From a virus, in IMG/VR virus record IMGVR_UViG_3300021077_000115, positions 366,064-391,957 of that record: DNA of 25,894 bases; one strand, 5' to 3'. The notes beneath the pieces were generated by a model, which searched no databases, had not been told where the DNA came from, and saw nothing but the letters and a program-made list of their open reading frames with translations. The position numbers and the translations under genes are program-made. Positions 1,921-25,894 of this stretch are shown here, one piece after another; within the stretch, counting starts at the first letter, position 1; each line of letters begins with the position of its first letter.

Positions 1921-1949
1921 TATCCTCTATATCACTACACGGCCAGTAC

Positions 1950-7192: not shown

Positions 7193-9151
7193 TTATCGAA
7201 CATCAATTCTTGGGGCTCGTTCAATCGTAGAGACTGGCTTCTGCAAATCAGCAGATTCTCCAACAGGAACAGCGGCTGGGCCTACATCTGGGCCTGCAGC
7301 TCCGCCCTGCATCTTCGCAAGATCTTGTTCCTTACGCATCTCTTTGCGCTTTTCATCTTCGTCCTTCTTTTGTTGTAGATTGTTCCTGATATTAGTGGTT
7401 TCAGGATTCATCGCAACAGTCTTTGGCTCAATCCATTCAGAAGCACCAGGTACCTCAATTGATCCTTTAAGCCTAGTAAGCACACCCTCTAGGCGACTTC
7501 CGATGTATTGGTTCGACTCAAGAGCCTTACTCATTGCCTCGCCCAAAGCTGGGAAGAATGAAGATAGGCTAAGGCGATCCATCATAATATCAAGGATAGC
7601 TAACTGACGAGCAATCTCTCGTTTGTTATAAATCGAAACAAGCATTTCCAATCTACTCACAACATCATTGATACTCACGCCCTTGAGAGCTGCGTCAATA
7701 ACATCTTCTGTATTATCCTCTGGAGTCTCTTCCACTGGCGGAGGTGCTTCCACAACACTTGGTGGAACATCAGGTGGCGGTGGGGGAGGTGGTGACGGAG
7801 AAAGTGCTTCTTGAGCAAACTTTGAACGAGGATGCCAATACCCACGACCAATCTTAATTACGTCTGCAACCTCAATAGCCGCTGCGGCCTGTGGGGCACT
7901 TGGCTGAGGCTGAGCAATAGGCGGTGGAGCTTCTACAGCTGGCACGCCAGCTGGCGCTGGAGGAAGTGGAGGCACCTCATGGCTTCGTTCTGACCTCCTC
8001 TCCTCTGGTGTATCGTCTTTATCTGAGACTCCTCTCTCTAGATTATCAAAGAATTCTTTTAGACATTGATAAGTATCATTCTTATCCCCTTCACCTGATG
8101 GTGGGGCTTCTACTCCAGGAATACCTGGAGGTGGAGTCATGCCTCCTGATGGATCTAGTTGAGCCAGCTTATAAAAGAAACCAGCAGCGCCATCCTTGCC
8201 TCTTGCCTTTAATAGGTTTGCTGCTCGATAGATTTGGTCTACGAACAATGAAGAACCAGATGTTAGCTTGTTGGCGGTTTGAATTCTTCGCTTCAGATCT
8301 TGAAGAAGCTTCAGCATCAGCTCCTGATCATCGCCAGCAAATAATTGACCATCCATAGAGGCCAACATTTTCTCTGCCGAGTTTAGGCGGCTAATGAGCT
8401 TTCTACGTTGTCCTTCAATTTTATCGCGAGCAGAATTAACGTCACCTTGTGGCATGCCAGGGAGCTCATCTCTCATCCCTCCGATGGGATTTGGGAACTT
8501 TCCACTACGATGTCGAGCGCGCAAAGAATCTACACCGATAGGAAGATTAGCTAGAAATAGCCCATCTTGAGCCAGCTTGGGATACTTCTCGGGAGTCCTC
8601 TCCTTATAGAATTTCAGCCATTGTTCATAGTCCATTTGTTCCTTTGCTTCCCAGTTACCAATTACAGATTTTTTTGCTTGAATAGGATCATTACCTTTAC
8701 TCATTAAACCATATATCTCGCGAGTAGCCGCTACCCAACGACCAATGTCATATTTAGGGAATTCTGAAATTGACCCAGGTTGTGGGTAAGCGATCTTTGG
8801 TCTAATATGTCCAGATACCATCTTCTTTAATGCGAGATCAGTGGCTTCTATCAGCTGTAAAAGTGTACCGATTGGTGCTTTTTCTCTGTTCCTGAACACT
8901 TCCGCAGCAATTGCACGAGCTGTAGAGTCATTGAGTTTTACCTTAAATATCAAATGAGCAATCTCTGGGACATGATTTCTTACCAAGAAGAATCTATTTT
9001 GGTCTTCGTCATTGTCGATACCAAGCTGTGACATCGTATCAAAATCAGATAGCACTCCGTTCCGAAGGTCTTCTGGTAAGCATTCACAATTTGCCGAATC
9101 AACTTGGCGCTGAAAGTGTTCATTAAAAGTCATCGGACTCCTCATCTTCAT
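7193..9151 (-). CDS. Hypothetical proline-rich protein (652 aa) with three VEAPPP-type repeats
   Basis: It is a long ORF. The central region reads GIPGVEAPPSGE / GVPAVEAPPPIAQPQPSAP / PPPPPPPDVPPSVVEAPPPVEE. I found no enzymatic motif. Confidence 0.6.
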   Translation of the reverse strand: MKMRSPMTFNEHFQRQVDSANCECLPEDLRNGVLSDFDTMSQLGIDNDEDQNRFFLVRNHVPEIAHLIFKVKLNDSTARAIAAEVFRNREKAPIGTLLQLIEATDLALKKMVSGHIRPKIAYPQPGSISEFPKYDIGRWVAATREIYGLMSKGNDPIQAKKSVIGNWEAKEQMDYEQWLKFYKERTPEKYPKLAQDGLFLANLPIGVDSLRARHRSGKFPNPIGGMRDELPGMPQGDVNSARDKIEGQRRKLISRLNSAEKMLASMDGQLFAGDDQELMLKLLQDLKRRIQTANKLTSGSSLFVDQIYRAANLLKARGKDGAAGFFYKLAQLDPSGGMTPPPGIPGVEAPPSGEGDKNDTYQCLKEFFDNLERGVSDKDDTPEERRSERSHEVPPLPPAPAGVPAVEAPPPIAQPQPSAPQAAAAIEVADVIKIGRGYWHPRSKFAQEALSPSPPPPPPPDVPPSVVEAPPPVEETPEDNTEDVIDAALKGVSINDVVSRLEMLVSIYNKREIARQLAILDIMMDRLSLSSFFPALGEAMSKALESNQYIGSRLEGVLTRLKGSIEVPGASEWIEPKTVAMNPETTNIRNNLQQKKDEDEKRKEMRKEQDLAKMQGGAAGPDVGPAAVPVGESADLQKPVSTIERAPRIDVR

Positions 9152-9941
9152 CTGATTCTAAAGGCTCTTCGTCTTTATACTCCTCTAGAAACTTCTGATC
9201 AAACTCTTCAACCTTATTTCCCAACTTATCAAGAGACTGTCTCTCCTTTTCAATTTCCCTTGTAGTTGTAGCTGGCAATGGAGCTAGATCTCTTGGGGTC
9301 ATCTTTGATAACTCTTCTTTCAACAAATCCATGAATAAGGATCCATACTCCGGCCCAAGACGTTCTAATACTCTTCGGATTGCGTCTTGAAACGCAACTG
9401 ATTGCTGTTCAACCATCTGGACTGTATAGGTATGTTCAATACGAATATCTGGGCGATCATTTTTAATTTTGTCGCACTTCTCAAGAACTTGCATCAAAAT
9501 TTCTGCATATTTAGTGAAAATATAATCTGTGCGAGTATTTTCAGGATCGCTTTGAATTAAATCGAATAGTTGTTCGGAACGAACCTCCATAATAGTTACC
9601 AAACTATCTAGTTTATCTAGATAGTTAAGCTCCTTCTTAACTCCATCAACAACACGATCCCGCCACGCCCGAGTATCCATTAGAGATTCTGCAATCTTCT
9701 TATCAATCTTGCTATCGGCATCCCTCTGAATAATCTTCTTTACATACCCATGATGGTCTGCATATTCATCCAAGAATGTTTGCAGCACAGTTGCTGGAAC
9801 TCTTAGGTGTCCCTCATCTGGTTTTGGATATTTATCCTTTAGATAAGCAGATACAACTTTAGGGCTTTCTCCGCTAAGAAGCTTTGTAATTATTGATTGT
9901 TTCTCTGGATGATCAATGATCTTTGAAAAATCGGACGCCAT
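9123..9941 (-). CDS. Hypothetical protein (272 aa) with acidic C-terminus
   Basis: This ORF overlaps the downstream gene by 29 nt. Its N-terminus, SPKVVSAYLKDKYPKPD, resembles motifs repeated in the adjacent 1423-aa protein. Confidence 0.55.
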   Translation of the reverse strand: MASDFSKIIDHPEKQSIITKLLSGESPKVVSAYLKDKYPKPDEGHLRVPATVLQTFLDEYADHHGYVKKIIQRDADSKIDKKIAESLMDTRAWRDRVVDGVKKELNYLDKLDSLVTIMEVRSEQLFDLIQSDPENTRTDYIFTKYAEILMQVLEKCDKIKNDRPDIRIEHTYTVQMVEQQSVAFQDAIRRVLERLGPEYGSLFMDLLKEELSKMTPRDLAPLPATTTREIEKERQSLDKLGNKVEEFDQKFLEEYKDEEPLESDEDEESDDF

Positions 9942-9955
9942 TTCATTCCTTCCTC

Positions 9956-12900
9956 TTACTTTTTCGAAACAAATGGAGACAATCCCTTAATTGGATTGAA
10001 TTCTTTTGATTCTCCAGGCTGACGTGAGGTACCAGGAGTCCACCTTGGAGTGCTGATACGACTACGCGCTGGAATATTTCGTACTCTTACTGGCCCACCC
10101 TCACCCTTTTGAAGATCTTCAAGTGAAGGTGAATCGCCAGACATTCCAGGGTCTCGTACGCCCTTTCCTTTACGTGGCTTCAAAATCGAAGCGAACGTCA
10201 CCGGTTCTTCTCGCCTTGGGTACTTGCCTCTTTGTTCTCTGTCCTTGCCCAAACCACCAATGGCAATTTGATATGGAGGATAGAAACCTTGCTCCATCAT
10301 CCATTTGTTTTGTTCTTGTTGGCTAGCCTCGGTATCTTCCTTATCAGATTGTAGATTATTATAAGCATATTCTATAACATCCCAAGGAAGGTTAGCATCA
10401 GGGAATCGCTCTTCAAGTTGCTGCTTTGCATCACTGAATGGCATCTTGCTGAAAGCTAGAGCTGTAACAGTATCACGAATCTTCTGTCCGCTCTGACTAA
10501 CATACTTTCTGATCCTATCTACAATTTGATAGTCGATTCCCATTGAGTCAGCAATCTCTTCCAATTTCTTCTTGGGAACTCCTTTGACTGCTAATGGAAG
10601 TATCTTACTCTTGATGCCAATAGGAATATCAGCTAGATTATCCTTATTAGATCCAACAATCTTATTCCATTCATCCGGCTTGTCTCTCCATTGAGTTGAG
10701 AATTGTTTCTGAGCCTCAACGAATGCTTGCTGATATTCTTCTGGATCTGAGAATAATGTCTTCAGCCCATGATAGTTTGGAAGAATGTTACCAGAGACTT
10801 TCTTGTCTAGATTTCGAAGAAGCTGTCTTGTTGTTTGATAACCAAACACTGGTTCGTCTGGTGAGTTGAATCCCTTAGAGACCATTTCATCAGCTTGCGC
10901 CTTTTTCTCAGCGTCGCCGTAGCCTTCAAAGTGATTCTTGGCCGCTACAAAAGCATCCCAATATTCTTCTGGATCTTGCCAAAATTGAACAAGCTTCTTT
11001 CCATCTGGCCCAATTGGTTGCTTCTTAAAGAATGGAGCTTTGGCTCGCTCCTCTCCCATAATATTTCTCAAGTCAATATTTACCTGATTGAAGGTAATAT
11101 TATCGTCCTCCCCAGGCTCAATCATCGGTTTGAACCCAGCTTCGCCCAATACTTTATTGACGCTTCTTCTAATGATTCTTCCCTTTATATCGGTTCGATA
11201 GGCGTTGATTTCCTGAGTCTTCTGTGGTCCAACTCGAAGAAAACGAGATGCCTTGAGATCGTTCAGAGATGGAACGGTAAAGAATTCTGTGCTCTTATCG
11301 CTATATGTATTCTTAAGATATTCAGCAATCGCTGTAGGGTCCTTAAGCTTAGGATCTCTATTTTTCTTGGCAAGATAAGTATTGACTGCCCTTGGAATAT
11401 CTCCATGCTTCAACATATCTGCGATATGACGATCTTTACTTTCCTCAACCAAATATTCTGATACGGCTTTAGAAGATTCTCCACGACCAAGCATATCCAT
11501 AACTTCGCCACGAATATCATCTGGTAATGAAGTTACCGACTCAGGGTCTTTGTCAACATTATATACAAAGTTCCTGAGCGCTTCTTCTAGCTTATCATTA
11601 TCTGATTTGATCTTGCTTTCAATCTTATTCTCAAGCTCCTTAGCTTGGACCTCATTGATAGTTATTCCCCAATGCTTTTGATAATCTCCCCATCTTAGGT
11701 ACTTGTACTTTTGAGAATTGCTCGCAGGTTTTTCTGCCGAAAGCTCAGGCTTCTCTTCTGGTATGGTCTTACCAATTTCTAAATGTTCTTTGGAGGGCGG
11801 CGGTACCTGACGTTCTATTGGAATTTCCTTTTCTTTTACCTTTGGATTCCATGGGCCATATTTAATCTTTCGCATTTCATCTAGAATGTTCTCGAATATT
11901 TCATCATTGGTAGGCGTTGGCTCACCAGATGCATTCCTATCTACAATTCTTTCTGTCATCGTATAGAACATCTTCGAAGCTTTTGTATCTTCATCGGAAA
12001 CCCATCTCTTCTTACTTTTCTCGAATTGATAGATTTCGGATATGATTTTCTTAGGCTCTCCCTCAGCGAAAAATGCTTTAGCCTCTTCTTCTGCCGCTTG
12101 ATACTCTGGACTATTCTCGTCGTATTCCCCTTCATCTGCTTTTGGAATTGGAACAATAGCTGGTCTCTTTTTTTCTGTTCGAGCAGCTGGGGCCTCTGGT
12201 GCTACCTGCTCTTGCAAAGCGCTGCCGAACTCGGCATAAGCCCAATCTCTAACTAAATTCGCAAACTCAGAAAACATTTCTGCATTCATTTCTTTGCGAA
12301 ACTTCTGAACTTCATAATTAGCTGCTGCGTCAACAAGATCCTTTCCGTGAAGACTGAGCTTGAATCTGTGATATTCTTTCGGGTCTACCAAACCAGCCTT
12401 AAGTTTTCCAATAACATATTGAGCAAGATCTGGAAGCTTTTCGGATGTTATTTTATGCTTTGTCGTTGCCCTCTCACCTTCAAAAGGATCCAAGATCTGA
12501 ACAGGGGCTGTGGCAGGTAAAGGCGCTTCTAGCGCAGATGGAATTTCATTTGGTTCTAATTTTCCGCCCAAATCCAATACGGGAGCTGGAACTGCAGCTT
12601 CCTTTAAGATTCTGGAAAGCAAATTTAAACTCTTGTTATCATCTGAACTATATTGATCAGCAATCTTCTGCAACGTATCTTTATTGACGCCAAAGCTGGC
12701 CATCACTTTGATATGCTTATCAATCAGGTCAGTCCATCCCAAATCACGTAGATGCGGGAACAATGATTCGGCAACCTTGACTTCATCGGTTGGCTTTTCG
12801 AATTGGCTATTGAATCCAGATGTCAATACCGACTTTATCTGTTGATCTTGTAAGCCCTCAGCTTTTGCCTTGGCGATTGCAGATTTCAACAAATGTGGAG

Positions 12901-14227
12901 CTATTTCTTGAACAGCATTGATCACCAGAGCCATAAGACTTTGGTGTGCAGTGGCCGTATCAGCATATTCAATCTCATCTTTATATCGTGGCCGTTCCAT
13001 ACTCGGAATAACGGCTGGAGGGGGCGCTGATGGGGGTATTGTTGCAACTCCAAAATCAGGCTTATTCCCAATAAACTCCGCATTTAATAGAGCTAGATGA
13101 TTTTGGTGCATACCAATATCTTCCAAAGATTTAAGCGTATCATCCATCATCCTTATCCACTGAGTGGAATTCTTAGGATCTGCCTTTACTATTTCTGATA
13201 AAGGCTGAAGAACGCTCTTGGCATTGTAATATTGGTCCTCGCTTTCTCTCTTTGATAGTGTTCTATTTATCTTACTCTTGAGCGGAACTCTTTTTTTTTT
13301 ATCAGATTCGTCATCAGCTAGTGTTTTAAGTCCGGCATCAGAGATATCCGAGGCAAGTATAATCGCCACTTGGGATGTTGATAACCCAGCATCCATAGCA
13401 TTATCAATGGCCCGGTCTAACAAACCAGGAGCATGATCACGAATTGCCTTCAAAGCAGTTGCTATCTTGACAATAATCTGTTTATCGCTGGAAGCATAGC
13501 GGCCCATCAAAGATTCTCTTGTCTCGAATAGTGACATGCCCTGATCGCGAATATCTCCAAGGTCATGAGTCTGATTCTCCACAGACCCGCCTGGAACTTC
13601 ATTACCCTTCTGGGTCTTGTAGCCAGCTTTGTAGTCATAAATAATACCAGTGACAATGTCTTGATAGACATGATCAGTGATACGTGTCATCTGTCCACCT
13701 GGACGATCCGGTGGATACCGAGTCTGAAGAGGAGCCTCCATCGGAACATAGCGTTTAACCTGTTGTTCAACTGCCTTGGCCTGAGCCTGGGCATTCTCCA
13801 TTGTTGAAAGACGCTTACGCGGTTCATCGTAGCATTCTTCGCCGGTAGTCTTACGACGCTCAGTTCGTAATCGATTTATTTCATCTTCAGTGACTTTACG
13901 AGCAGCAGCCACTGCATTCTTTGGAGCGGCAATCGAAAGTAACAACTCATCAAGCACAGATGCCTGCTTCTTGAGCAAAGGATCTTCGCTTTCATCAAAT
14001 GCAGAAGCTAGAGCGGCAATCTCATCCAATTGTTGAGGTGTAATTTCGAATGACGCATGGTTGTCCATATCATCAGCAACACCCTCTAGAAGAGTAGATG
14101 CGGCGGCAATTGCCGTAGCTACTTTCTGAAATACATCAGGGTTCTTCTTGGATGCGCTAACCAACAGATCATCGCTGCTCTTCTCTAGCTTGCGGGCTAG
14201 AACTCTTAAGTCCATTGAAATTGCCAT
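9956..14227 (-). CDS. Giant hypothetical protein (1423 aa); possibly a virion internal / ejected or structural protein
   Basis: It is an uninterrupted 4.27-kb ORF with no recognisable catalytic motif. It has internal repeats (QDPEEYWDAFVAAK / SDPEEYQQAFVEAQ) and a basic C-terminal tail. The structural guess rests only on its size and its position in the operon leading to terminase/portal. Confidence 0.65.
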   Translation of the reverse strand: MAISMDLRVLARKLEKSSDDLLVSASKKNPDVFQKVATAIAAASTLLEGVADDMDNHASFEITPQQLDEIAALASAFDESEDPLLKKQASVLDELLLSIAAPKNAVAAARKVTEDEINRLRTERRKTTGEECYDEPRKRLSTMENAQAQAKAVEQQVKRYVPMEAPLQTRYPPDRPGGQMTRITDHVYQDIVTGIIYDYKAGYKTQKGNEVPGGSVENQTHDLGDIRDQGMSLFETRESLMGRYASSDKQIIVKIATALKAIRDHAPGLLDRAIDNAMDAGLSTSQVAIILASDISDAGLKTLADDESDKKKRVPLKSKINRTLSKRESEDQYYNAKSVLQPLSEIVKADPKNSTQWIRMMDDTLKSLEDIGMHQNHLALLNAEFIGNKPDFGVATIPPSAPPPAVIPSMERPRYKDEIEYADTATAHQSLMALVINAVQEIAPHLLKSAIAKAKAEGLQDQQIKSVLTSGFNSQFEKPTDEVKVAESLFPHLRDLGWTDLIDKHIKVMASFGVNKDTLQKIADQYSSDDNKSLNLLSRILKEAAVPAPVLDLGGKLEPNEIPSALEAPLPATAPVQILDPFEGERATTKHKITSEKLPDLAQYVIGKLKAGLVDPKEYHRFKLSLHGKDLVDAAANYEVQKFRKEMNAEMFSEFANLVRDWAYAEFGSALQEQVAPEAPAARTEKKRPAIVPIPKADEGEYDENSPEYQAAEEEAKAFFAEGEPKKIISEIYQFEKSKKRWVSDEDTKASKMFYTMTERIVDRNASGEPTPTNDEIFENILDEMRKIKYGPWNPKVKEKEIPIERQVPPPSKEHLEIGKTIPEEKPELSAEKPASNSQKYKYLRWGDYQKHWGITINEVQAKELENKIESKIKSDNDKLEEALRNFVYNVDKDPESVTSLPDDIRGEVMDMLGRGESSKAVSEYLVEESKDRHIADMLKHGDIPRAVNTYLAKKNRDPKLKDPTAIAEYLKNTYSDKSTEFFTVPSLNDLKASRFLRVGPQKTQEINAYRTDIKGRIIRRSVNKVLGEAGFKPMIEPGEDDNITFNQVNIDLRNIMGEERAKAPFFKKQPIGPDGKKLVQFWQDPEEYWDAFVAAKNHFEGYGDAEKKAQADEMVSKGFNSPDEPVFGYQTTRQLLRNLDKKVSGNILPNYHGLKTLFSDPEEYQQAFVEAQKQFSTQWRDKPDEWNKIVGSNKDNLADIPIGIKSKILPLAVKGVPKKKLEEIADSMGIDYQIVDRIRKYVSQSGQKIRDTVTALAFSKMPFSDAKQQLEERFPDANLPWDVIEYAYNNLQSDKEDTEASQQEQNKWMMEQGFYPPYQIAIGGLGKDREQRGKYPRREEPVTFASILKPRKGKGVRDPGMSGDSPSLEDLQKGEGGPVRVRNIPARSRISTPRWTPGTSRQPGESKEFNPIKGLSPFVSKK

Positions 14228-14229
14228 TA

Positions 14230-15756
14230 TTATGCTCCTTCTGGGAAGAATATCTTATTAGTCATAAACTGTGGTGTGTCACGTACCGGTTGCTTTGCCA
14301 CTTTGTGCAATGCAGCCATTTCTTCGGCAGGAGACTGGCCTGGTGCATAGATATTCGACATCATGTGTGCAATAGCCACTTTTTGTGCTTGTGGATCTAT
14401 TTCACCAAGAGTATTGATTGCTTCTTCAGCACGAATGTAGTTACCCTCTTTTACAGATTCTATTACGACATCCAAAAGCTCTGTTGGCTTCAAATCATAG
14501 CAAGGAGAAGCTGTAGCAAGAGCCCGCTTGTTTCCGCCAGAACCAGACCTGACGATTTGAGAAATAGCCTCTTTGGTAAATTCGGTTACGATTCCATCCG
14601 CAAATATAATCTGCGGTTGTCCAACACGGCCTTCAACAATTTCGACTGGAACCTTGAAACCAGTTCCAGTTCCAACTGCCACTGCGTAGAAAATCTTATC
14701 GCGCTCTACATCGACAACCTTTACCTGAACGCTCTTATATCCAAGCTCGGCAAATTTGCGAATGACCACCGCACGGCCAGCTTCGACAATTTTGTCACCA
14801 TGAACGAAGCGAGCAATTCCATCTGGCTTGCCAAGAGTCTCGGCAAACTTGGTCTCTGGAGTCTCTGGCATCTGTGGTAAAGCCACATCAGCTTTCGGAT
14901 CCACAAGCTCGGCATAGTAAATGGCATTCTCAAGCGATGGGGTAGAACCCTGTTCGGAAGCTACCTTGATAGCTGCCATCTCAACCTCATTCACTATAGT
15001 AGAGCTTCCACGCTTGATTTGCTCAAGAACATCGAGCAATTTGGCTCCATCAACTCGGAAACCTTTGCCGGCAACCTTGAGTACATGAGTTTCATATGCT
15101 TCTTTGTCGAACTCTTCAAATCCGTCTGGAGTGAAGAACAACTGGGGAAGTGTAGCTTTGCCTTCAACCAACTCGACCGGGATTAGAACATTGGCAGTTC
15201 CAATAGGCGTCTCGTGAACGGCCTGGCAAATGATAATGTCCTTACGACCAGCAAAGGTTTTAACTTCTTTTGGAAGGCATCCAATATTAATCAACTGAGC
15301 ATAAGCAGCACGCTGAGCCCGTTTAGCATCATCTGTTGAATAGATCCGCTCGGTTGGAGTTGCATCAAAAGCCCCAGCTAAGGCGTTAGCTAAGATAGGA
15401 TCTGAGAACCTTTGATAATCACGGTCAAGCGACATCCCTTCATTAGCTTCACGCACAAACGTATGCGGCTTTGGCTCGGCACGCTTGCCAAGTTCCTCGG
15501 TGAATACCTGGGATAGCTTGGAGTGGCTAGCTCCGAATCGTTCCACTATATTAGCAAGCTCGGCTCTGTTGATGAACATCTTATCAGAAGCCATCTTAGT
15601 CAGAACCTGAGAGGCATTAATGAGAGGAACATCAGTTGGGCGGGCTGCAGCTTCCCGACGAGCTTTGGCAGCAAGTACAGGGAGAGCGAATGTTTCATCG
15701 GCCTCAATTGCACTAGCGGCCTTTGTTATCAAAGATGTAATGTCTTGTAAATTCAT
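14230..15756 (-). CDS. Hypothetical protein (508 aa) with internal ~50-aa duplication
   Basis: The repeat VLIPVELVEGKATLPQLFFTPDGFEEFDKEAY recurs as FKVPVEIVEGRVGQPQIIFADGIVTEFTKEAI. An SD (AAAGAGGA) precedes the ATG at 15756. Confidence 0.6.
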   Translation of the reverse strand: MNLQDITSLITKAASAIEADETFALPVLAAKARREAAARPTDVPLINASQVLTKMASDKMFINRAELANIVERFGASHSKLSQVFTEELGKRAEPKPHTFVREANEGMSLDRDYQRFSDPILANALAGAFDATPTERIYSTDDAKRAQRAAYAQLINIGCLPKEVKTFAGRKDIIICQAVHETPIGTANVLIPVELVEGKATLPQLFFTPDGFEEFDKEAYETHVLKVAGKGFRVDGAKLLDVLEQIKRGSSTIVNEVEMAAIKVASEQGSTPSLENAIYYAELVDPKADVALPQMPETPETKFAETLGKPDGIARFVHGDKIVEAGRAVVIRKFAELGYKSVQVKVVDVERDKIFYAVAVGTGTGFKVPVEIVEGRVGQPQIIFADGIVTEFTKEAISQIVRSGSGGNKRALATASPCYDLKPTELLDVVIESVKEGNYIRAEEAINTLGEIDPQAQKVAIAHMMSNIYAPGQSPAEEMAALHKVAKQPVRDTPQFMTNKIFFPEGA

Positions 15757-18430: not shown

Positions 18431-19429
18431 CTACTTCGGAGACGCTGGGATTATAACTGGCTTTTCCAAAACCGAAATCAAATCAGAAACATCTTCTGGG
18501 TACGTTACGTTTATCACAAACACATGTGCTCCATTGGGCGGCACACCAAACCCAGAAACTCTAACTCTGTCTCCATTCCTTATCTTTGGCTTGAACTCTA
18601 AAACCTTATCACCCCTAATGGTTCGAAGATTTTTCTTCGTTCCTTGGAGAGCCTCAAGTAAACTAAGCTCTACTGTAGATATAACATCACTCCCATCGAG
18701 TATTAGGCCATTCTCATTGGGTAGTACATTGATCATAACTACCAAGCTATCATATAGATCTTTGGTTCTATAGTTGCCTCTACCATTAAGGGTTAGGATC
18801 GTACCATTCTCAATACCAGCTGGAATTGGTATTGATATATCTTCTTTGATGCGTTTCTTAAAAGTACCATTGCATGATTGACATACGCCAGAAGTAGAAT
18901 AGCCAGTCCCCTTACATCCATTACATGGCAATTCACGATTGTCAGCAGGTTGAATAGCACCGCTTCCATATTTTCGTTTGCCAGTTCCATTACACTTGAT
19001 GCAAGTAGTTTTGATATTGGCATTATTACAATCAAAACATTTTACCAAACGAGAATAAGAAATATCCTTTCGGCCACCTACTATTGACATCTCAAATGGA
19101 ATATCAGCCTTCACAGCTATAGGCGGCCCTGGTATATTCGTGAATTTTTTATTGAACACCTCATCCATTTGGCGTCTAAGTTCTTCTGCCAAATGATCTG
19201 CTGTATTATAGAATGGAGATTTTAGATCATTGAATGCTGGAGGGCTTGTTCCAAACTTCTCTAGTAACTGAAAGGCCTCGTTAATTTTTTTGAACTTATC
19301 TTCAGCATCTGGAGATTTGTTTCTATCAGGGTGATACTCAATAGCCTTCTTCTTAAATGCCGCTTTGACATCAGTTCCTGATGCTCCAATAGGCAATCCA
19401 AGTAAGGCGCATGCGTCATGAGTGTTCAT
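18431..19429 (-). CDS. dnaJ: DnaJ/Hsp40-family co-chaperone homologue (J domain + CxxCxGxG zinc-finger domain + C-terminal substrate-binding domain), 332 aa
   Basis: The N-terminal J domain carries the invariant HPD (KKKAIEYHPDRNKSPDAEDKFKKINEAFQLL). The CR-type zinc-finger repeats are CFDCNN, CIKCNGTG, CNGCKGTG and CQSCNGTF. The CTD has the GTILTLNGRGN pattern. The start overlaps the ruvC stop as ATGA. Confidence 0.85.
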   Translation of the reverse strand: MNTHDACALLGLPIGASGTDVKAAFKKKAIEYHPDRNKSPDAEDKFKKINEAFQLLEKFGTSPPAFNDLKSPFYNTADHLAEELRRQMDEVFNKKFTNIPGPPIAVKADIPFEMSIVGGRKDISYSRLVKCFDCNNANIKTTCIKCNGTGKRKYGSGAIQPADNRELPCNGCKGTGYSTSGVCQSCNGTFKKRIKEDISIPIPAGIENGTILTLNGRGNYRTKDLYDSLVVMINVLPNENGLILDGSDVISTVELSLLEALQGTKKNLRTIRGDKVLEFKPKIRNGDRVRVSGFGVPPNGAHVFVINVTYPEDVSDLISVLEKPVIIPASPK

Positions 19430-20016
19430 TTGCTCTTAGTATCCTTGACAGCCTTTGGCCTCGACTTCTTCTTCGGAGTTGTTTGCAACTTCGCCCAAGC
19501 CAATGCTACGGCCATCGAATCAGCCACATCGTACGATTCTTCCATGACAACCTGCAGCTTTGTTCGTTTGTTGATTTTGTATAGCCATGGATAAGGGATA
19601 TTTAAATGTTGGGATACCAATTCTGGAATTTCTTCTTTCTTTGGTAATACTTTCGTCAACTTAATAGCATGTCGAATCTTTAGAACATTCAAAGCTTCTG
19701 GTGTAATTCCCAAATCTAAAATAGCCAATCGAAGAGTCATATTCAAAATTGCCAATGGAATAACAGTACTAGCAGAAGATGCGCCCTTCATAAACCTTAT
19801 ATAGTCTTCAATAACAAATTCTTGTACATTGTATTTACCAAAGAGATTTAATATATGAGCTCTTGCTTGAATTAGCATATCCAACAGCCCATTCGTTTTG
19901 TCCGGTTTGTAATATTCGCAATGAATAAGACTTGGGCTGTAATCATCTTCATAGTCAATTATTGAGATGCCGATAGTAGTTGTGCTAGCATCAAGGCCCA
20001 TAACTCTTCTAATCAT
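19426..20016 (-). CDS. ruvC: RuvC-family Holliday-junction resolvase, 196 aa
   Basis: The N-terminus VMGLDASTTTIGISI matches the RuvC i.GiDpG...G (first catalytic Asp). The C-terminus DVADSMAVALAWA matches RuvC ADAlAiAl.H. The size is typical of phage RuvC. Confidence 0.75.
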   Translation of the reverse strand: MIRRVMGLDASTTTIGISIIDYEDDYSPSLIHCEYYKPDKTNGLLDMLIQARAHILNLFGKYNVQEFVIEDYIRFMKGASSASTVIPLAILNMTLRLAILDLGITPEALNVLKIRHAIKLTKVLPKKEEIPELVSQHLNIPYPWLYKINKRTKLQVVMEESYDVADSMAVALAWAKLQTTPKKKSRPKAVKDTKSK

Positions 20017-20036
20017 AAAGAGTTATATATCAAAAA

Positions 20037-20065
20037 GAAAAGGAGGACTTTTGATCCTCCTTTTC
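20037..20065 (-). terminator. Strong factor-independent terminator hairpin (11-bp stem, 7-nt loop), plausibly bidirectional
   Basis: gaaaaggagga-cttttga-tcctccttttc forms a perfect 11-bp stem. On the minus-strand transcript it is followed by UUUUUGAUAU, 70 nt after the SSB-like stop and just upstream of ruvC. On the + strand it is followed by aattctatttt. Confidence 0.6.
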
Positions 20066-20135
20066 AATTCTATTTTAGCTTAGGCTAAGTTAATGAAGCT
20101 CATGTTCTTCACTATCTAGTAGTGAAAAACAAAGA

Positions 20136-20909
20136 TTATCCATTGGCTGCGGTTTCGGTTTCGTCATCTGAAGAATCCGCTGGGCGCTGGAACGAATAAT
20201 CGTCCTCAGCCGGCTCTTCAAGCTTCGATCCTTTTGCACTTTTCCCATCTTCCTTTGGAACCACAGTTCCGTCCCAACCGAGCGAACGAAGACGCTCAGC
20301 AACCTTCTCAGGCTTCGGGCAGATTAGCTGACGGCCAAGGCACTTCTCAATAATCTCATCACCACCGATTTCGGTAATGAGTTTGAGGTCACCTTCGGAC
20401 ATAGGCTCCGTATCCTCAGAAACAACGCTATAGTAACCTGTAGCTGTCTTGCTCTTCGGATCGAACTTGATCGAGATATCAAAATCACGAGGTGTGAGAT
20501 TCTTTCCCTTCTTGTTCTTGGATTCGAGAATATCCTCAATTGATTGTGCAGTCAATTGGCTCAAATCAAGCAACTTGAGTTGGTTGTCTGCGCGGTCAAT
20601 AGCCACGACCATGTAACGCTCACGGCCTGTCAAGCCAAGATACTTCTTGACCGGGCAATCTTCGCCATACGTTGGCCACGATGTGCGAACCTTATCACCA
20701 TATGAGCGCTTGCTGTCAGGGCCCTTCCAGCGAACCTGATAAAAGACTCCCATTCCAGAAACGATGCGTACGCTATTGAAGCCTGGAAGTAGCTTCATAT
20801 ACGGAAGACGTGGAAGGTCTTCGTCATCATATTTACGGTTTTGTTTTGGGAGCGTTCCCCAGGCTCGGATTCCAGTGGATGGCTTGTTTTCTGTATTTGA
20901 TTCAGTCAT
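20136..20909 (-). CDS. Hypothetical protein with acidic C-terminal tail; possible single-stranded DNA-binding protein (257 aa)
   Basis: It sits between the RecA-like and RuvC genes. The C-terminus EEPAEDDYSFQRPADSSDDETE resembles the acidic tails of phage SSBs (T4 gp32 and T7 gp2.5 types). I saw no diagnostic OB-fold motif, so this is an inference. Confidence 0.3.
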   Translation of the reverse strand: MTESNTENKPSTGIRAWGTLPKQNRKYDDEDLPRLPYMKLLPGFNSVRIVSGMGVFYQVRWKGPDSKRSYGDKVRTSWPTYGEDCPVKKYLGLTGRERYMVVAIDRADNQLKLLDLSQLTAQSIEDILESKNKKGKNLTPRDFDISIKFDPKSKTATGYYSVVSEDTEPMSEGDLKLITEIGGDEIIEKCLGRQLICPKPEKVAERLRSLGWDGTVVPKEDGKSAKGSKLEEPAEDDYSFQRPADSSDDETETAANG

Positions 20910-21225
20910 TTGTTTCTCCTTGCGGCGTTTTGTTGTATGTTATGTTCTCTATGCGAATTACTCTGTGCCACGGAATTTTGCGATTTATTGGCTTAATTTC
21001 CGTATTTTTGGCTGATGTTATTGTTGCATGAGGATCTTTGATTGCTTTTGCCGCTTGTGTTTTAGTAAGCTGAATGCCCCTAAATTCCAAAAATACATTG
21101 CATTCGTTTACATCTTGCGATCTATAGAGTGCGATGCCATCGGTCTCGTAGGGATCTTCTGCTACTATTATATATATCGGCTTAATCGTAGTTCTGTTAA
21201 CTATTGATGGTTGTTGAAAGGCCAT
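20902..21225 (-). CDS. Hypothetical small protein (107 aa) immediately downstream of the recombinase
   Basis: The ORF abuts the RecA-like stop and overlaps the next gene by 8 nt. It could be a recombination mediator by position only. Confidence 0.45.
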   Translation of the reverse strand: MAFQQPSIVNRTTIKPIYIIVAEDPYETDGIALYRSQDVNECNVFLEFRGIQLTKTQAAKAIKDPHATITSAKNTEIKPINRKIPWHRVIRIENITYNKTPQGETND

Positions 21226-22226
21226 TATTCGTCATCCTCTTCTATCCCATCGATATCAGGGACTTTATTCTTGATTTCGTTGGATAGGTCGATTCCAGAG
21301 GCTGATACGCAAAGATCCAGTTCTGCGATACAATCTTCCCCACCAAATAGGTGGTTCTTCTTGACCCTTGCCACAGTTGTAATTCCGTACTTTACTTTTT
21401 GCTTGTTCTTAGTTCGGATGAGCGTAGCCTTCCTCGACATTTCTAAAATAAGGGAGCTAAGATATTCCAGTTCAGCTCCGCCCTTCTGCTTAAATCCAAC
21501 AGAACCAATATTTGCGTAAACTTGGTTGATGCACAAAATAGCAATCGTATAGTTGCCATCTTCGTCTCTGAATTTCTCAATCAATTGATTGAACCTTCGA
21601 ATTGCCCAAGAAACTTCCTTGGCAGTAACGCCAGGTTGTTTACTATAGTCATCATTCTCTTCATCTTCAGCTGAGTTAATAGATGCACCAACAGAATCCC
21701 AAACAATGAGAATCTTAGTTTCTGGATCCATTTCCTTAGCTGCCTTGACGTAAGCAATTACCTGCTGAACACCCTCTAAAATATTACGACTAGGTGCCAC
21801 AGCAATTTGCGAAGGATCGCCGCCAATTCTTTCTCTGTATCGTACGCTATCGAACTTACCCTCAGCGTCCCAGAGTACAACCAAAGCCCCTTGGTTTTGT
21901 GCGGCCTTCATCGCCAACATGGCCGCTGTGCTTTTCCCACTATCTGGCCTGCCAGCAATTTGGAAAATGCGCCCATAAGCAATTCCCAGCAATCCAGTGA
22001 GCGGCTTCCAGAATTTATCTATTTCCGGAGATGATATGTAGTCATCAGGATTTGTTGATAAGACAATCATATCGCCAGTTTTCATTCTGGCGGTTAGAGG
22101 TGCCTTCTTTTTATCAAATCTACCCTTAGCTTTTTCAACAAGGGCATTGATATCAAATCTTGGTTTTGATGTTGCTGTTAGTTCACTATCAAGTTTTTCA
22201 AGTATAGATTTTTTAGCACTAGCCAT
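21225..22226 (-). CDS. RecA-superfamily recombinase (RecA/UvsX/Sak4-like), 333 aa
   Basis: It has a Walker A motif (IAGRPDSGKSTAAM) and a Walker B motif (ILIVWDSVGAS), which matches RecA LIVVDSVAAL closely. The size is RecA-like. Confidence 0.7.
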   Translation of the reverse strand: MASAKKSILEKLDSELTATSKPRFDINALVEKAKGRFDKKKAPLTARMKTGDMIVLSTNPDDYISSPEIDKFWKPLTGLLGIAYGRIFQIAGRPDSGKSTAAMLAMKAAQNQGALVVLWDAEGKFDSVRYRERIGGDPSQIAVAPSRNILEGVQQVIAYVKAAKEMDPETKILIVWDSVGASINSAEDEENDDYSKQPGVTAKEVSWAIRRFNQLIEKFRDEDGNYTIAILCINQVYANIGSVGFKQKGGAELEYLSSLILEMSRKATLIRTKNKQKVKYGITTVARVKKNHLFGGEDCIAELDLCVSASGIDLSNEIKNKVPDIDGIEEDDE

Positions 22227-22235
22227 TCCTCTCCT

Positions 22236-22679
22236 TTAAATAGGTTTCTTTATAGATCTAAAAGTAAGATGTGCTTCTTTGAGTAGAGCATGGATATTGG
22301 ACAAGTGCTTATAATCGCGCTCGGCCTCATTTTGCTCAATTGATATTCGCCTTACTTCATCATCTCTTAATATAAGATGAGCCAACGCACTCTCTGTTAC
22401 CTTTTTTCCATCAATGGAAACGTTCTTCAGACCTGCATATGCGTTAGCCTTAGCAAAGTCTATATCACGCTTCAGCGCTCTTGATTTTAGATCGGTAGAT
22501 GATAGATCAGAAAGCAAAGCCGCCTGCGCGAGTAAACACGCAGCGGCCATGGCTGAGGCATCGTCCTCATCAAACGTTCCTCTGGACAAGGAGTCTAGCT
22601 TTAGTAGAACCTTGTGATATTTTTCGTCAAATCCAGTCAACAGATTTTTAATCTGTTCATCATCATGTTCAGTCGTCAT
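22236..22679 (-). CDS. Hypothetical protein (147 aa)
   Basis: The ORF sits in the operon and is predicted helical/coiled-coil. I saw no motif. Confidence 0.5.
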   Translation of the reverse strand: MTTEHDDEQIKNLLTGFDEKYHKVLLKLDSLSRGTFDEDDASAMAAACLLAQAALLSDLSSTDLKSRALKRDIDFAKANAYAGLKNVSIDGKKVTESALAHLILRDDEVRRISIEQNEAERDYKHLSNIHALLKEAHLTFRSIKKPI

Positions 22680-23079
22680 CTTTCTTTAGAACTGTGACGT
22701 TCATACGCTCGACCTCTTCTTTATATGATTGAAGTTCTTGTTTGAGAGCATCAATCTCTGCAAATTGTTCTGAAAACTTCTGCTTCGCTTCCACTATCAA
22801 TGTCACTATTTGGTCTTGAGAAATTCTAAGTTGTTGATTTACCATCAAACTTATCAAGAATGTAAAGACTTCCATTGAAGAATATTTCTTATAAGGAGGC
22901 TTGACAAAGATAATAATTCCATCATCATTTACTTCAAAATGATCTTGAAATAAATCCTTGCCTTTGAAATTAGGGCGATCATATCCTTTACAGATTTCTT
23001 CATAGAACATAAATTCATCGTTGGTCATTGAGACCTTCTTATTATCTATGATTCTCATTACTATCGGATTTCTTGCCAT
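22669..23079 (-). CDS. Hypothetical protein (136 aa)
   Basis: The ORF overlaps its neighbour by 11 nt. I saw no motif. Confidence 0.5.
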   Translation of the reverse strand: MARNPIVMRIIDNKKVSMTNDEFMFYEEICKGYDRPNFKGKDLFQDHFEVNDDGIIIFVKPPYKKYSSMEVFTFLISLMVNQQLRISQDQIVTLIVEAKQKFSEQFAEIDALKQELQSYKEEVERMNVTVLKKDDD

Positions 23080-23085
23080 TATTCC

Positions 23086-23445
23086 TCAAAACTTATAAAT
23101 ACACTCAGCTTCCCAATCCACATTTTCAGCAACTACAAAATCAGAGGCCGTGAAAATAATTCCAATATTACGAATCCAAACATTTTTAATAACTGTAATA
23201 TTGTAACTATCATCAGCAAAACTATCCAATATAACAATATTGAAAGGAACATATTGAGAAGCTACGTGGATATAACCATGCATGAAAATCGATTCTATTT
23301 TTTTTGTATCAAACCTAATCCGATCACAACTACCAGAAACAGGATTTTCTTTGTATGAAATATTTTGAATAACACCAACTTGACTGTTATTTACCTTAAT
23401 AATGATTTTAGTATTTAGCCCAATTATTCTTTCATACCCATCCAT
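23086..23445 (-). CDS. Hypothetical protein (119 aa)
   Basis: The ORF has beta-rich composition. I saw no motif. Confidence 0.5.
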   Translation of the reverse strand: MDGYERIIGLNTKIIIKVNNSQVGVIQNISYKENPVSGSCDRIRFDTKKIESIFMHGYIHVASQYVPFNIVILDSFADDSYNITVIKNVWIRNIGIIFTASDFVVAENVDWEAECIYKF

Positions 23446-23672
23446 TACTTAGCCCTTTTAAAACCGCCCGTTCCTTTCTCGAAATTTTCCTTAGCTTTCT
23501 CACGCTTATATTCTTCTTTGATAGCTTCGAAAGACTCATGAGTTGTCATCTTCTTACTATGGTCTTCATATTCAGAAACAACCTCTTCCAACTCATTACT
23601 CTCTATTCCCTTTTCAGCTAACTTCTTTAGTTCAATAAGTTCTAAATCATCTCTTGAAATGTTGACTACCAT
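23445..23672 (-). CDS. Paralogue family member 5 (75 aa; minimal version ending ...KAKENFEKGTGGFKRAK)
   Basis: It shares the C-terminal K-A-K ... G-x-G-G-F-[FMK]-R motif with the four upstream ORFs. Confidence 0.5.
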   Translation of the reverse strand: MVVNISRDDLELIELKKLAEKGIESNELEEVVSEYEDHSKKMTTHESFEAIKEEYKREKAKENFEKGTGGFKRAK

Positions 23673-23673
23673 A

Positions 23674-24066
23674 TTAACCTCTCACTCGCATAAATCCACC
23701 ACTCTTACCATCGCCCTTCCCATCTATAACGCGCTTGCATTTAGCCTTGCTCAAAATTTGTCTCTGCAAATATTCAAAGCCTTCTTTAGTGGAGCAAAGA
23801 GCTATCTCATAGAAATCATTTCCATTCATTATATCTTCGAATTTTTCGCGCATTTCTTTTAACTCATGCTCTGTCATAGAAGATAATAATTCATGCACTG
23901 AAAAAGATCCATTGGATGGCGCAAAGAAATCAAACCCCTCTGCCTTTAATTCATTGTATGCTATCTGATCTTCTTCTCTATTTTTTTCAGTTGAGTCATA
24001 ATATTCTTTTGTACAAGTATGGTCCTCATCTATTATAAGTACATCATTCTCTTCTAAATGATCCAT
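23674..24066 (-). CDS. Paralogue family member 4 (130 aa)
   Basis: It contains YNELKAEGFDFFAPS, EIALCSTKEGFEYLQRQ and a C-terminal KAKCKRVIDGKGDGKSGGFMRVRG. Confidence 0.6.
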   Translation of the reverse strand: MDHLEENDVLIIDEDHTCTKEYYDSTEKNREEDQIAYNELKAEGFDFFAPSNGSFSVHELLSSMTEHELKEMREKFEDIMNGNDFYEIALCSTKEGFEYLQRQILSKAKCKRVIDGKGDGKSGGFMRVRG

Positions 24067-24562
24067 TTCGATTTCCCTTTAAGGCATCTTGAGCTTTCAT
24101 GTTTTGATAATATAAACGCTGCGCATAAGGATCGTTTTCAAGTTTATCTTCAAGCTTCTGCTCATAATTCTCTACGAATTCATCAACAGCCTTAGATTCA
24201 TCTGGAGTAATTTCATGCGGCTCTAATACTTCTGTTGAAAATTCAGACCTGAAAAATCCACCCTCTCCTGTATCTAAAGATTCTTTTGCCTTAATCTTCT
24301 TATGTAAATCTCTCAAACCTTCTTCGGTCTGCAAGAATACTAAACTAGCAAAAGAAGAATCGCAGCCATCGACTCTCTCGATTAATTCCTTTAATATGAA
24401 AGAGGATATCTCTGATGCCTTAAATACATCAGTAACTTTTTTTGTCTTGAAAGGATCAATTCCCTCTGATTTCAAAGTTTCATATGTATTTTTATCTTCT
24501 GCTACGTCTTCTATTTCAGTAACTAATTCATCAATAACATTCACACTTCCTCCATTTTGCAA
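24044..24562 (-). CDS. Paralogue family member 3 (172 aa; contains two copies of the C-terminal motif)
   Basis: It contains YETLKSEGIDPFKTK, SLVFLQTEEGLRDLHKKIKAKESLDTGEGGFFRSE and a C-terminal NMKAQDALKGNRNGSFRRE. Confidence 0.6.
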   Translation of the reverse strand: MQNGGSVNVIDELVTEIEDVAEDKNTYETLKSEGIDPFKTKKVTDVFKASEISSFILKELIERVDGCDSSFASLVFLQTEEGLRDLHKKIKAKESLDTGEGGFFRSEFSTEVLEPHEITPDESKAVDEFVENYEQKLEDKLENDPYAQRLYYQNMKAQDALKGNRNGSFRRE

Positions 24563-25034
24563 CTTTATACATTCTAGAGAACATATAATTTTGACCCTCT
24601 TCTGTTTTCAACAGCGCAATCTCTTCTTTTAGTAAAATATTTGGTACGAGAGTATTAATTATCATTTTTGCAATATCTATCGAAAGAGAATTTTCACACC
24701 TAAACAAATCAATTCCATCAGCTATCATTGCTTGATGAGCCTCTCTGTCTTCGGCCTTACAAGCAGCCATCTCCTCATCAGATAATGACCGATTCTCATC
24801 TTCCGGTTCTGGCTCGTTTATAAATTCTACAAGCTTGGATATTTTTTGACAATATTTCTGTTCGTCTTCATCAGTCCAGTTGGCTAGATAGGTAGCGGCA
24901 GATTTCTCTTGTAGCGCAATCCACTTATTTAGCTTGTCAAGATTAATGACACCATCAGAAATAATCCCCTCAGGAACTCCATCATCTCCAGCTAATTCTT
25001 CAATCTTTTTCCTATCAATATCACTCAATTTCAT
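24531..25034 (-). CDS. Paralogue family member 2 (167 aa; divergent, lacks GGF tail)
   Basis: It contains QAMIADGIDLFRCENS and EEIALLKTEEGQNYMFSRMYKVAK. The ORF is directly contiguous with members 1 and 3. Confidence 0.5.
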   Translation of the reverse strand: MKLSDIDRKKIEELAGDDGVPEGIISDGVINLDKLNKWIALQEKSAATYLANWTDEDEQKYCQKISKLVEFINEPEPEDENRSLSDEEMAACKAEDREAHQAMIADGIDLFRCENSLSIDIAKMIINTLVPNILLKEEIALLKTEEGQNYMFSRMYKVAKWRKCECY

Positions 25035-25814
25035 TTACGCCCTCCTAAAAAATCCACCACCGCCTCCCGTAACAGCATCTTGGGCCTTTATCCTCTTGAA
25101 GTTATCAAGTTGAAGCTGCTTTCGCCCCTCATCAGTTTGCGACAGAGCTGTTTCATATGCTATTGGCTTATCATCCTGGCTCATTACTCTAGCCAGCTTA
25201 CTAACAATATCTGAAGACTCAAATTCCGAAGACCCCATTGTTGACGGTACTGATGACATAAATGGATCAAACCCAGACGCTTTTAGTTCAAGATAACTCT
25301 TTTGATCTTCTGGATCAATTTTTTCCTCTTTGGAAGTTTCTGTAATATCAGTGGTGGTATTATCGCCATAGGGATCTCCAACTCCCTGAATCATATTCGC
25401 AAATTCAGCAAGCTTACCGCCTTTACGAGCAGCAAATTCCTTACCCCTTTCTGCCAATTGAGCCGTTTTCATCAGCTCTTCTTTACCGATATTATCAGTA
25501 CGCTTGATAAGCTCATTATAACCAGGCGCAATCTTCAAATTACTCTCATCAAAATCACCGGGGCCGCCGCCTTTGCGATGGAACTTTTCTACAGGTTTAC
25601 CATCACCCATTTTCTGGAAACGGTAATTTGACATAAGCCAACCAGCAATGCCTTGAGGATCATTAGGCATCTTCTTGATCGCCTCTGTAAGTTCTTGCAG
25701 AAGCTCTTGAGTGGCGGTGTTCATTATTTCCCCGCCACACCCTGGGCAAATATTGCTTTGAATTGCATTCACCCACTCAGGTGGAATGTTTGCACCGCAT
25801 GACATACATCTCAT
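25035..25814 (-). CDS. Paralogue family member 1 (259 aa) with N-terminal CxxC...CxxC zinc ribbon
   Basis: The N-terminus is MRCMSCGANIPPEWVNAIQSNICPGCGGE. It also contains YLELKASGFDPFMSS, YETALSQTDEGRKQLQLDNFKRIKAQDAVTGGGGGFFRRA. A good SD (GGAGA) sits 4 nt before the ATG. Confidence 0.65.
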   Translation of the reverse strand: MRCMSCGANIPPEWVNAIQSNICPGCGGEIMNTATQELLQELTEAIKKMPNDPQGIAGWLMSNYRFQKMGDGKPVEKFHRKGGGPGDFDESNLKIAPGYNELIKRTDNIGKEELMKTAQLAERGKEFAARKGGKLAEFANMIQGVGDPYGDNTTTDITETSKEEKIDPEDQKSYLELKASGFDPFMSSVPSTMGSSEFESSDIVSKLARVMSQDDKPIAYETALSQTDEGRKQLQLDNFKRIKAQDAVTGGGGGFFRRA

Positions 25815-25846
25815 ACTATCTCCTATTACAAGGCCACTGTGAACTA

Positions 25847-25866
25847 CCCTTGCCTAAAGGCAAGGG
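25847..25866. other. GC-rich stem-loop (8-bp perfect stem cccttgcc / ggcaaggg, 4-nt loop) upstream of paralogue 1; possible terminator or regulatory hairpin
   Basis: The inverted repeat is visible directly. On the + strand it is followed by cuucuugg and on the minus strand by uaguucac, so the U-tract is weak either way. A second small hairpin, ggatc-gtcatt-gatcc, lies at 25873..25888. Confidence 0.3.
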
Positions 25867-25894
25867 CTTCTTGGATCGTCATTGATCCAACATA

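Follow-up and report, generated by a model that had tools for sequence, protein, structure and literature searches.

A DnaE-adjacent protein family of uncultivated huge phages and the conserved C-terminal peptide found in one gene array

Gene A and its family

The DNA analysed in this work (referred to as the window) is a stretch of 25,894 nucleotides, corresponding to positions 366,064 to 391,957 of the IMG/VR virus record IMGVR_UViG_3300021077_000115. It is phage DNA, in which every called gene is encoded on the minus strand. Region 23445-25814 contains five co-directional open reading frames (ORFs) of this strand, designated here genes A to E: genes A and B abut, there are overlaps between B and C and between C and D, a gap of 1 nt separates D from E, and E overlaps the next gene, F, by 1 nt (Table 1). 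In a preliminary description, made from the sequence alone, the array was presented as five abutting or overlapping ORFs encoding paralogous proteins with three shared sequence blocks, the third of which is a C-terminal tail. The layout was confirmed by the ORF coordinates, and all the motifs quoted there are indeed present in the A-E sequences. For comparison, 46 related loci (designated L with a number; individual proteins are designated P) were collected from IMG/VR and other assemblies, and their ORFs were labelled by iterative search.

The start of gene C given in Table 1 is a TTG codon; a more probable one, judging from the sequence, is the GTG at position 24544, located behind a GGAGGA Shine-Dalgarno motif, which would yield a protein of 166 aa. 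The possibility that B and C constitute a single frameshifted gene was rejected, because the overlap between the B stop and the C start is kept in both L002 and L044, and C possesses its own GGAGGA-GTG start.

Table 1. Features of the array and of the neighbouring genes within the window.
Feature	Position	Strand	Length	Description
Gene A	25035-25814	minus	259 aa	Full-length family founder: predicted zinc ribbon and two helices (aa 1-70), mostly disordered middle, C-terminal module, tail
A N-terminal domain	25605-25814	minus		CxxC...CxxC zinc ribbon and near-invariant MPNDPQGxAGWLxSNYxF; none in B-E
A C-terminal module	25038-25325	minus		aa 164-259; block 1 YLELKASGFDPF, block 2 ..TDEGRKQLQ.., then KAQDAV-GGGGG-FFRRA; part copied in B, C and D
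A terminal peptide	25038-25115	minus		aa 234-259; ..FKRIKAQDAVTGGGGGFFRRA-COOH
Gene B	24531-25034	minus	167 aa	Own N-terminal half and degenerate module (aa ~62-159); tail replaced by ..KVAKWRKCECY
Gene C	24044-24562	minus	172 aa	From TTG; one full module and a second half-module
C internal tail	~24242-24292	minus		GEGGFFRSE; end of full module
C terminal tail	24047-24097	minus		..KAQDALKGNRNGSFRRE; end of half-module, C-terminus
Gene D	23674-24066	minus	130 aa	One module (aa ~27-127), ends ..KAKCKRVIDGKGDGKSGGFMRVRG
Gene E	23445-23672	minus	75 aa	Small conserved protein, helical by prediction; last 26 residues (23448-23525) match A tail, ..YKREKAKENFEKGTGGFKRAK
Gene F	23086-23445	minus	119 aa	Variable slot, outside the family
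Conserved downstream block	18431-23079	minus		PHROG/Pfam matches; gene order shared with relatives
Gene G	22669-23079	minus		No family match; coiled-coil-like C-terminal stretch
Gene H	22236-22679	minus		No family match; helical
UvsX/RecA-like	21225-22226	minus
p107	20902-21225	minus
SSB-like	20136-20909	minus
RuvC-like	19426-20016	minus
DnaJ	18431-19429	minus		Full: J, Cys-rich and C-terminal domains
Terminase and portal genes	10-3818
Perfect 8-bp hairpin	25847-25866	minus		CCCTTGCC-TTTA-GGCAAGGG; 33 nt upstream of A start

A search with a profile hidden Markov model (HMM) of the A family against 1.84 billion representative sequences retrieved 691 representatives at E ≤ 1e-3 (counted at the 50% identity level), including 232 at E ≤ 1e-30; among the best 150 of the 691, most proteins are about 180-300 aa long. 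The family comprises 118 clusters at 90% identity, all of them full-length and showing 32-100% identity to A. Contigs carrying its members reach 463 kb, and proteins identical to D and E are encoded on a contig of 391,957 bp. In cellular genomes (185,579 species genomes), there were only three matches, all of them on contigs of metagenome-assembled genomes (MAGs). No match to the family was found in GenBank phages, either with the window (megablast) or with A and two of its distant homologues (tblastn). Gene H likewise gave no tblastn match in these phages, and the only relatives of the UvsX protein among them are less than 30% identical.

Searches of Pfam-A, PHROGs v4 and NCBIfam 20 with A-E yielded nothing significant under strict or relaxed thresholds, and the same was true for the products of genes F-H. 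Furthermore, A-E had no significant match among PDB sequences, the structural model of A matched no PDB fold, and no mention of an A-type family was found in a literature search or in a comparative paper on jumbo phages (Iyer et al. 2021; PMC7824862). The initial impression that the motif combination belongs to no recognised family thus held, and, as judged by these searches, A represents in this window a large protein family of uncultivated huge phages that has not been described before.

The AlphaFold2 model of A, built from the family alignment, has ten-residue means of the predicted local distance difference test (pLDDT) of 89-94 for residues 1-60 and 78 for residues 61-70. Beyond residue 70 the pLDDT is mostly below 70, with short helices at blocks 1 and 2, and it falls below 50 for residues 252-259. 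The head of A (residues 1-70) is therefore confidently predicted to consist of a zinc ribbon and two helices, and the remaining chain to be mostly disordered. The zinc ribbon previously pointed out in the largest member of the array is the CxxC...CxxC motif of residues 3-26. In this segment A resembles generic zinc-ribbon domains (Pfam DZR and Zn_ribbon_TFIIB, NCBIfam HVO_2753), but the matches are far below threshold (12-15 bits at cut-offs of 22-80), and those domains have no counterpart of the conserved helical MPNDPQGxAGWLxSNYxF motif of A. A reading of block 1 as a SAP/HeH motif found no support in Pfam.

Relatedness of the array genes and their terminal peptide

Direct BLASTP comparisons within the array linked A with C (45 bits) and A with D (39 bits), the links of B and E being weaker. 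A module HMM was then derived from A-family proteins of other contigs, limited to their C-terminal ~95 residues and without C and D. It recognised C with 52.6 bits (E 1e-14) over two stretches, the full module (residues 21-105) and the half-module (116-171), D with 43.8 bits (E 5.6e-12) and B with 17.4 bits (E 1e-3). In profile-profile alignments (hhalign), the subfamily profiles of D, B and C matched the A family with E-values of 3.2e-12 (97.6%), 1.7e-10 (96.9%) and 6.3e-9 (95.9%), respectively, and B matched D with an E-value of 1.3e-6 (90.7%). These alignments prove A-D to be paralogues sharing one module of about 90 aa. None of B-E shows a full-length match including the head, which only A possesses, and blocks 1 and 2 of the C-terminal module are present in B, C and D. 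By the same profiles, B, C and D are copies of the C-terminal ~90-115 residues of A, without its head.

E does not follow this pattern. Its alignment with A is confined to the last 23-26 residues and runs through to the C-terminus of both proteins, with an E-value of 4.6e-4 for a shallow profile and of 4.9e-6 (86%) for a more diverse one; against D the value was 0.009 over 14 columns. Blocks 1 and 2 are missing from E, and it may share the terminal peptide with A by homology or by convergence. The extreme C-terminal G-x-[F/I]-[R/K]-R peptide is present in A, C, D and E and absent from the B protein of the window. The claim of five paralogues therefore stands for A-D, for which the shared blocks are significant by profile alignment (B, C and D against A); it has to be reduced to the terminal peptide for E, and the third block cannot be attributed to B of the window. 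The tail pattern K[AS][QK]..G..F.R, searched for in six frames of the 25.9-kb window, occurred only within the array and in the coding frame.

Between the copies in the array no DNA-level repeats were found, so that the duplications are old and a recent duplication of these genes was rejected. Comparison with the 83%-identical relative L002 gave ratios of nonsynonymous to synonymous substitution rates (dN/dS) of 0.10 for A, 0.26 for B, 0.07 for D and 0.06 for E, with dS near saturation. Read with that caveat, these comparisons mark all five as real genes that purifying selection maintains.

The preliminary description had emphasised the conserved terminal peptide, which turned out to be the most striking feature of the family and resembles a shared signal. 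As many as 225 of the 237 full-length members of the A family (95%) end with [F/I/V/Y/L]-x-R followed by 0-5 residues; in 220 of these 225 the triplet is followed by 0-3 residues, commonly by none, one or two. Among the 225 proteins, G at position -2 is conserved in 89%, F/I in 97% and the final R in 97%, and the consensus of the tail is KAQDAIxGGGxGxFRR. A strongly basic character (FKRIKAQ...FFRRA, YKREKAK...FKRAK), an aromatic residue and a glycine-rich spacer mark the last ~25 residues. The tail of A is retained in distant relatives devoid of E, and also in L032 and L034, from which H and the adjacent UvsX gene are missing. An interpretation of F-R-R-A or F-K-R-A as an FxxA motif of the RAD51/BRC type was discarded, as one third of the A-family members stop at ..FRR. 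Inspection of A-E revealed no hydrophobic N-terminal signal sequence (A begins with the zinc ribbon), and on these grounds precursors of secreted signalling peptides, such as arbitrium AimP or Phr, were also rejected.

The E family consists of 24 clusters. In 11 distinct lineages the gene stands between A and G; it is conserved in the nearer relatives, while in the distant ones G directly follows A. AlphaFold2 predicted two helices and a floppy tail for E, with a confidence too low for a fold search. In one E-family member from another contig (P0135) the tail is tandemly duplicated (GVGGFKRAKCGVGGFKRAK); this duplication and the two tails of C show the tail-coding end to be liable to local duplication. 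Residues 16-63 of E (ELKKLAEKGIESNELEEVV..) resemble the three-helix repeat of RecX, and the gene lies near a RecA-like gene. However, RecX is built of three such repeats in tandem and E has space for one at most, the NCBIfam score was 16 bits at a cut-off of 240, Pfam gave E=0.01 for two of 17 members, and the E-family profile found no RecX chain in PDB. The assignment to RecX was therefore abandoned.

Genes B, C and D have a much narrower distribution, as only 11 clusters of them were found among 5.8 billion sequences. They are maintained in three lineages, with indels and a C/D fusion. L044-46 and L050 also have the complete A-B-C-D-E order. In L002 gene C is largely deleted and its first 27 residues are fused to D, the N-termini of D differ between relatives (orthologues P0280, P0282 and P0273), and both tails of C are kept in the L044 orthologue. 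In B of the window (24558-24600) about 18 residues (..TRKALMDGNSSVRRCVPK..) are missing that are present in all four of its orthologues (P0274, P0278, P0279 and P0281). These four proteins carry a degenerate block 3 (..GNxxVKR) followed by a conserved Cys-rich CxPKWxKCECY; such an end (RCxPKWxKCECY) suggests a new function for the terminus of the B subfamily. In comparison with L002, dN was 0.16-0.27 for B-D versus 0.02-0.03 for G, H and UvsX. Judging from these sequences, B, C and D arose in one narrow lineage, were reshaped by deletion and fusion, and are selectively kept. The earlier impression of rapidly duplicating genes applies only to these three; A and E are syntenic, conserved core genes.

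The replication block around the array

In every related locus with enough flanking DNA the order DnaE-A-[E]-G-H-UvsX-p107-SSB-RuvC-DnaJ was found. Gene A directly follows the gene of a bacterial-type DnaE in every related locus (more than 40) in which upstream DNA is present, and only HNH-type insertions were observed between the two; in L044 the sequence TAATATG contains both the stop codon of DnaE and the start codon of A. For the window itself, which ends shortly upstream of A, the adjacency of A and DnaE was deduced from the contig L050, identical with the window in 100% over 12,401 nt. Upstream of A, L050 encodes a PD-(D/E)XK nuclease, a trigger factor (993-2435), three small proteins, an intact DnaE of 1240 aa and a 60-aa ORF. 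A trigger-factor gene is located upstream also in L004. DnaJ is present in 36 of the 46 loci, and most of the others end before the position of this gene.

These data change the picture of the array's position. It had been placed at the transcription-proximal end of an operon, which proved to be an effect of the window's edge: L050 contains at least seven co-directional genes upstream of the array, including those of the trigger factor and DnaE, and the array lies mid-way in a long co-directional replication block, not at its start. Similarly, the suggestion that these are genes of early host takeover or anti-defence, based on that placement, does not agree with the facts that A and E belong to the syntenic core of a DnaE-UvsX-SSB-RuvC-DnaJ block, as seen in more than 40 loci, and that purifying selection on both genes is strong.

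The window and L050 diverge at positions 25845-25894, beside the hairpin (Table 1), and BLASTN showed 100% identity only from position 50 of the reverse complement of the window onward. From this alignment, segment 25845-25894, at which L050 carries the 60-aa ORF, is a mosaic junction. In many relatives (L002-L010, L014, L016 and others) DnaE is split into a part with PHP, pol3alpha and finger domains and a following HHH_6 part, and often an HNH-like gene of 258 aa has been inserted ahead of A; L044 and L050 have an intact DnaE. The split DnaE and the HNH-like insertions suggest homing-endonuclease or intein traffic around the polymerase gene. In nearly all of about 40 loci DnaE has an acidic C-terminal tail, [LI]E[DE]E[ML][LV]xxG-h-xx[VIL][DE][DE].. 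(4150-4221 in L044, 7090-7163 in L050), which resembles block 1 of B (AYDEMVADGIDVF). The two were not recognised as one motif, as an HMM of the DnaE tail scored A-E with at most 1.4 bits (E ≥ 30).

Downstream of the array the window encodes F, G, H, a UvsX/RecA-like protein, p107, an SSB-like protein, a RuvC-like protein, DnaJ, a small zinc protein, a Toprim primase and a sigma-like protein, followed by several large unassigned ORFs, a tRNA nucleotidyltransferase, the large terminase and the portal protein. Gene F shows no similarity to A-E, and its product gave a weak match to the C-terminal end of PHROG 7543 (E 0.0016). In L002 and L004 its slot is occupied by an unrelated gene of 138-142 aa, and in L001 and L044 there is nothing in this place. 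H occupies the position at which a UvsY-like mediator would be expected, and the label UvsY-like is based on this position alone. Acidic tails, conserved across the related loci, end both UvsX (..PDIDGIEEDDE) and the SSB-like protein (..EEPAEDDYSFQRP..); they may be docking tails of the same machinery. No clamp gene was found in the window or in the fetched flanks. Four large ORFs located between the replication block and the terminase had no match in Pfam or PHROGs: 9956-14227 (1423 aa), 14230-15756 (508 aa), 7193-9151 (652 aa) and 9123-9941 (272 aa).

Possible roles of the terminal peptide

It is well established that short conserved C-terminal peptides located behind flexible linkers serve for docking on common hubs, as in bacterial SSB, in clamp-binding proteins, and in gp43, gp33 and gp55 of phage T4, whose tails bind gp45. 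The tail of A stands 0-5 residues from the free end of the protein, behind a glycine spacer and in a region of low predicted order, as would be expected of a peptide that folds into a pocket. On this basis we tentatively prefer, at a probability a little below an even chance, the reading that the terminal peptide serves for docking on a single partner within the replication/recombination machinery, with B-D being headless copies of the module. Such a peptide would probably fold upon binding and would have to be located at or near a free C-terminus. A, E and the additional copies would all attach by their tails to the same site of this partner. A would couple this partner to whatever is bound by its zinc-ribbon head, and the proteins without the head (E and B-D) would occupy the same site or compete for it, acting as regulators or as added valency. 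DnaE would be the favoured candidate for the partner, because it is always adjacent to A, with the stop and start codons nearly touching; G would come after it, as always being the next conserved gene, then SSB or UvsX, since their conserved acidic tails could meet a basic peptide, and lastly a host remodeller recruited together with the phage DnaJ.

The resemblance to the SSB tail (..DDDIPF), the beta-clamp motifs (QL[SD]LF) and the T4 tails consists in a conserved extreme C-terminal peptide behind a flexible linker and in its occurrence on several otherwise different proteins of the replication/recombination region. The A-family tail is a basic G-x-[F/I]-[R/K]-R, whereas the known ones are acidic or hydrophobic, and the comparison, made by sequence only, suggests that it may work like them, not that it belongs among them.

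Several observations weigh against the docking reading. By inspection, the tail fits no known docking motif (clamp-binding QL[SD]LF, PIP box, SSB tail). The clamp-binding consensus in particular (QL[SD]LF, QLxLxL or the PIP box Qxx[LIM]xx[FY][FY]) was rejected because a glycine spacer varying from 6 to 13 residues lies between the Q..I and the F of the tail and inspection of the tail found no L/F pair at the required spacing. The AlphaFold2 confidence is low for the module and for E, so that disorder until binding is an interpretation. The internal tail copy of C, GEGGFFRS, is kept in two lineages, and so a free C-terminus is not needed in every copy; in B the tail is replaced by a Cys-rich end. 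Adjacency of genes means co-expression, not physical contact, and for a basic, aromatic and Gly-rich tail the ligand could be nucleic acid instead of protein.

The last point leads to a different explanation, according to which the Gly/Phe/Arg tail and the K/R-rich helix preceding it bind nucleic acid, and A-E are disordered DNA- or RNA-binding accessory proteins, e.g., aiding UvsX or SSB on single-stranded DNA, with the copies adding capacity. The composition of the last ~25 residues, the placement of the genes among those handling DNA, and the zinc ribbon of A, a fold often used in nucleic-acid contacts, are all compatible with it. Yet, it leaves unexplained why 95% of the 237 proteins have [F/I]-x-R at a distance of only 0-5 residues from the C-terminus and why G at -2 is conserved in 89%; in addition, outside the tail the module is acidic (block 1 and its flanks) and A-E matched no known nucleic-acid-binding family in the library searches. 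We regard this explanation as unlikely. The tail might instead be a tag for a chaperone or an unfoldase (host DnaK via the phage DnaJ, or ClpX), by which A and E would be remodelled or removed during the assembly of the replication complex. There are precedents in MuA, remodelled by ClpX via the basic C-terminal tag ..RRKKAI, and in lambda P, released by DnaJ/DnaK. The analogy is that a protein of the replication apparatus ends in a basic peptide, and here a DnaJ gene is present in the same block; in sequence the tail is not similar to these proteins. The frequency of DnaJ among the related loci, the trigger-factor gene upstream in L004 and L050, and the C-terminal, hydrophobic and basic character of the tail would fit such a tag. 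However, all genes of the block co-occur, so that the co-occurrence of DnaJ is not specific to A and E, and the conserved headless copies (E and D) are hard to explain as mere substrates. Moreover, a general role in folding and assembly was predicted for the phage DnaJ (Iyer et al. 2021; PMC7824862), and altogether we find the tag quite improbable.

For B, C and D alone, the preliminary idea of host-directed proteins may be considered: they would reuse the module of A as diversifying decoys or as effectors of anti-defence or takeover, e.g., in mimicry of a host or phage peptide. Their restriction to one lineage, their plasticity (the 18-aa deletion in B, the C/D fusion of L002, the differing N-termini of D) and their faster evolution relative to G, H and UvsX speak for this; nevertheless, they sit, co-directional and tightly packed, inside the replication block with a conserved core gene on either side, purifying selection acts on them, and their closest relatives are A proteins and no host protein, with no match in the libraries, which leaves this idea a slim chance. 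The least compatible with the data, and very improbable, is an idea put forward at first, i.e., a capsid-targeting or protease-processing signal as in the internal proteins of T4, which are also small, variable in number and provided with a common terminal peptide. The T4 signal is N-terminal and is cut at L/I-x-E by the prohead protease; in the array the peptide is at the extreme C-terminus, mostly 0-2 residues from the end, where cleavage would remove almost nothing. Additionally, the genes lie in a replication block about 19 kb from those of the terminase and portal protein, A is coupled to DnaE in every locus with upstream DNA, and no prohead protease is linked to the array genes.

Returning to the docking peptide, a more far-reaching version would take G-x-[F/I]-[R/K]-R-COOH as a previously undescribed docking code of a DnaE-based replication/recombination machine common to uncultivated huge phages of a very large clade, with A as a new polymerase-associated adaptor subunit, E as a small regulator acting at the same site, and B-D as headless, lineage-specific competitors by which it is tuned. 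This is a tentative proposal, on balance rather doubtful; if true, the code would be a phage-specific counterpart of the networks based on the SSB tail or the clamp-binding motifs.

Huge phages with a bacterial-type DnaE are known almost solely from metagenomes, and the A family provides a handle on the organisation of their replisome. The C-terminal peptide of the DnaE-adjacent protein A is near-invariant, and another conserved protein as well as the additional copies carry it too. Should it be a docking signal, its receptor would reveal a replication hub and add a new pair of peptide and pocket; otherwise, the A family is still a clean marker of the clade, with 691 representatives and only three matches, all on MAG contigs, among the 185,579 species genomes.

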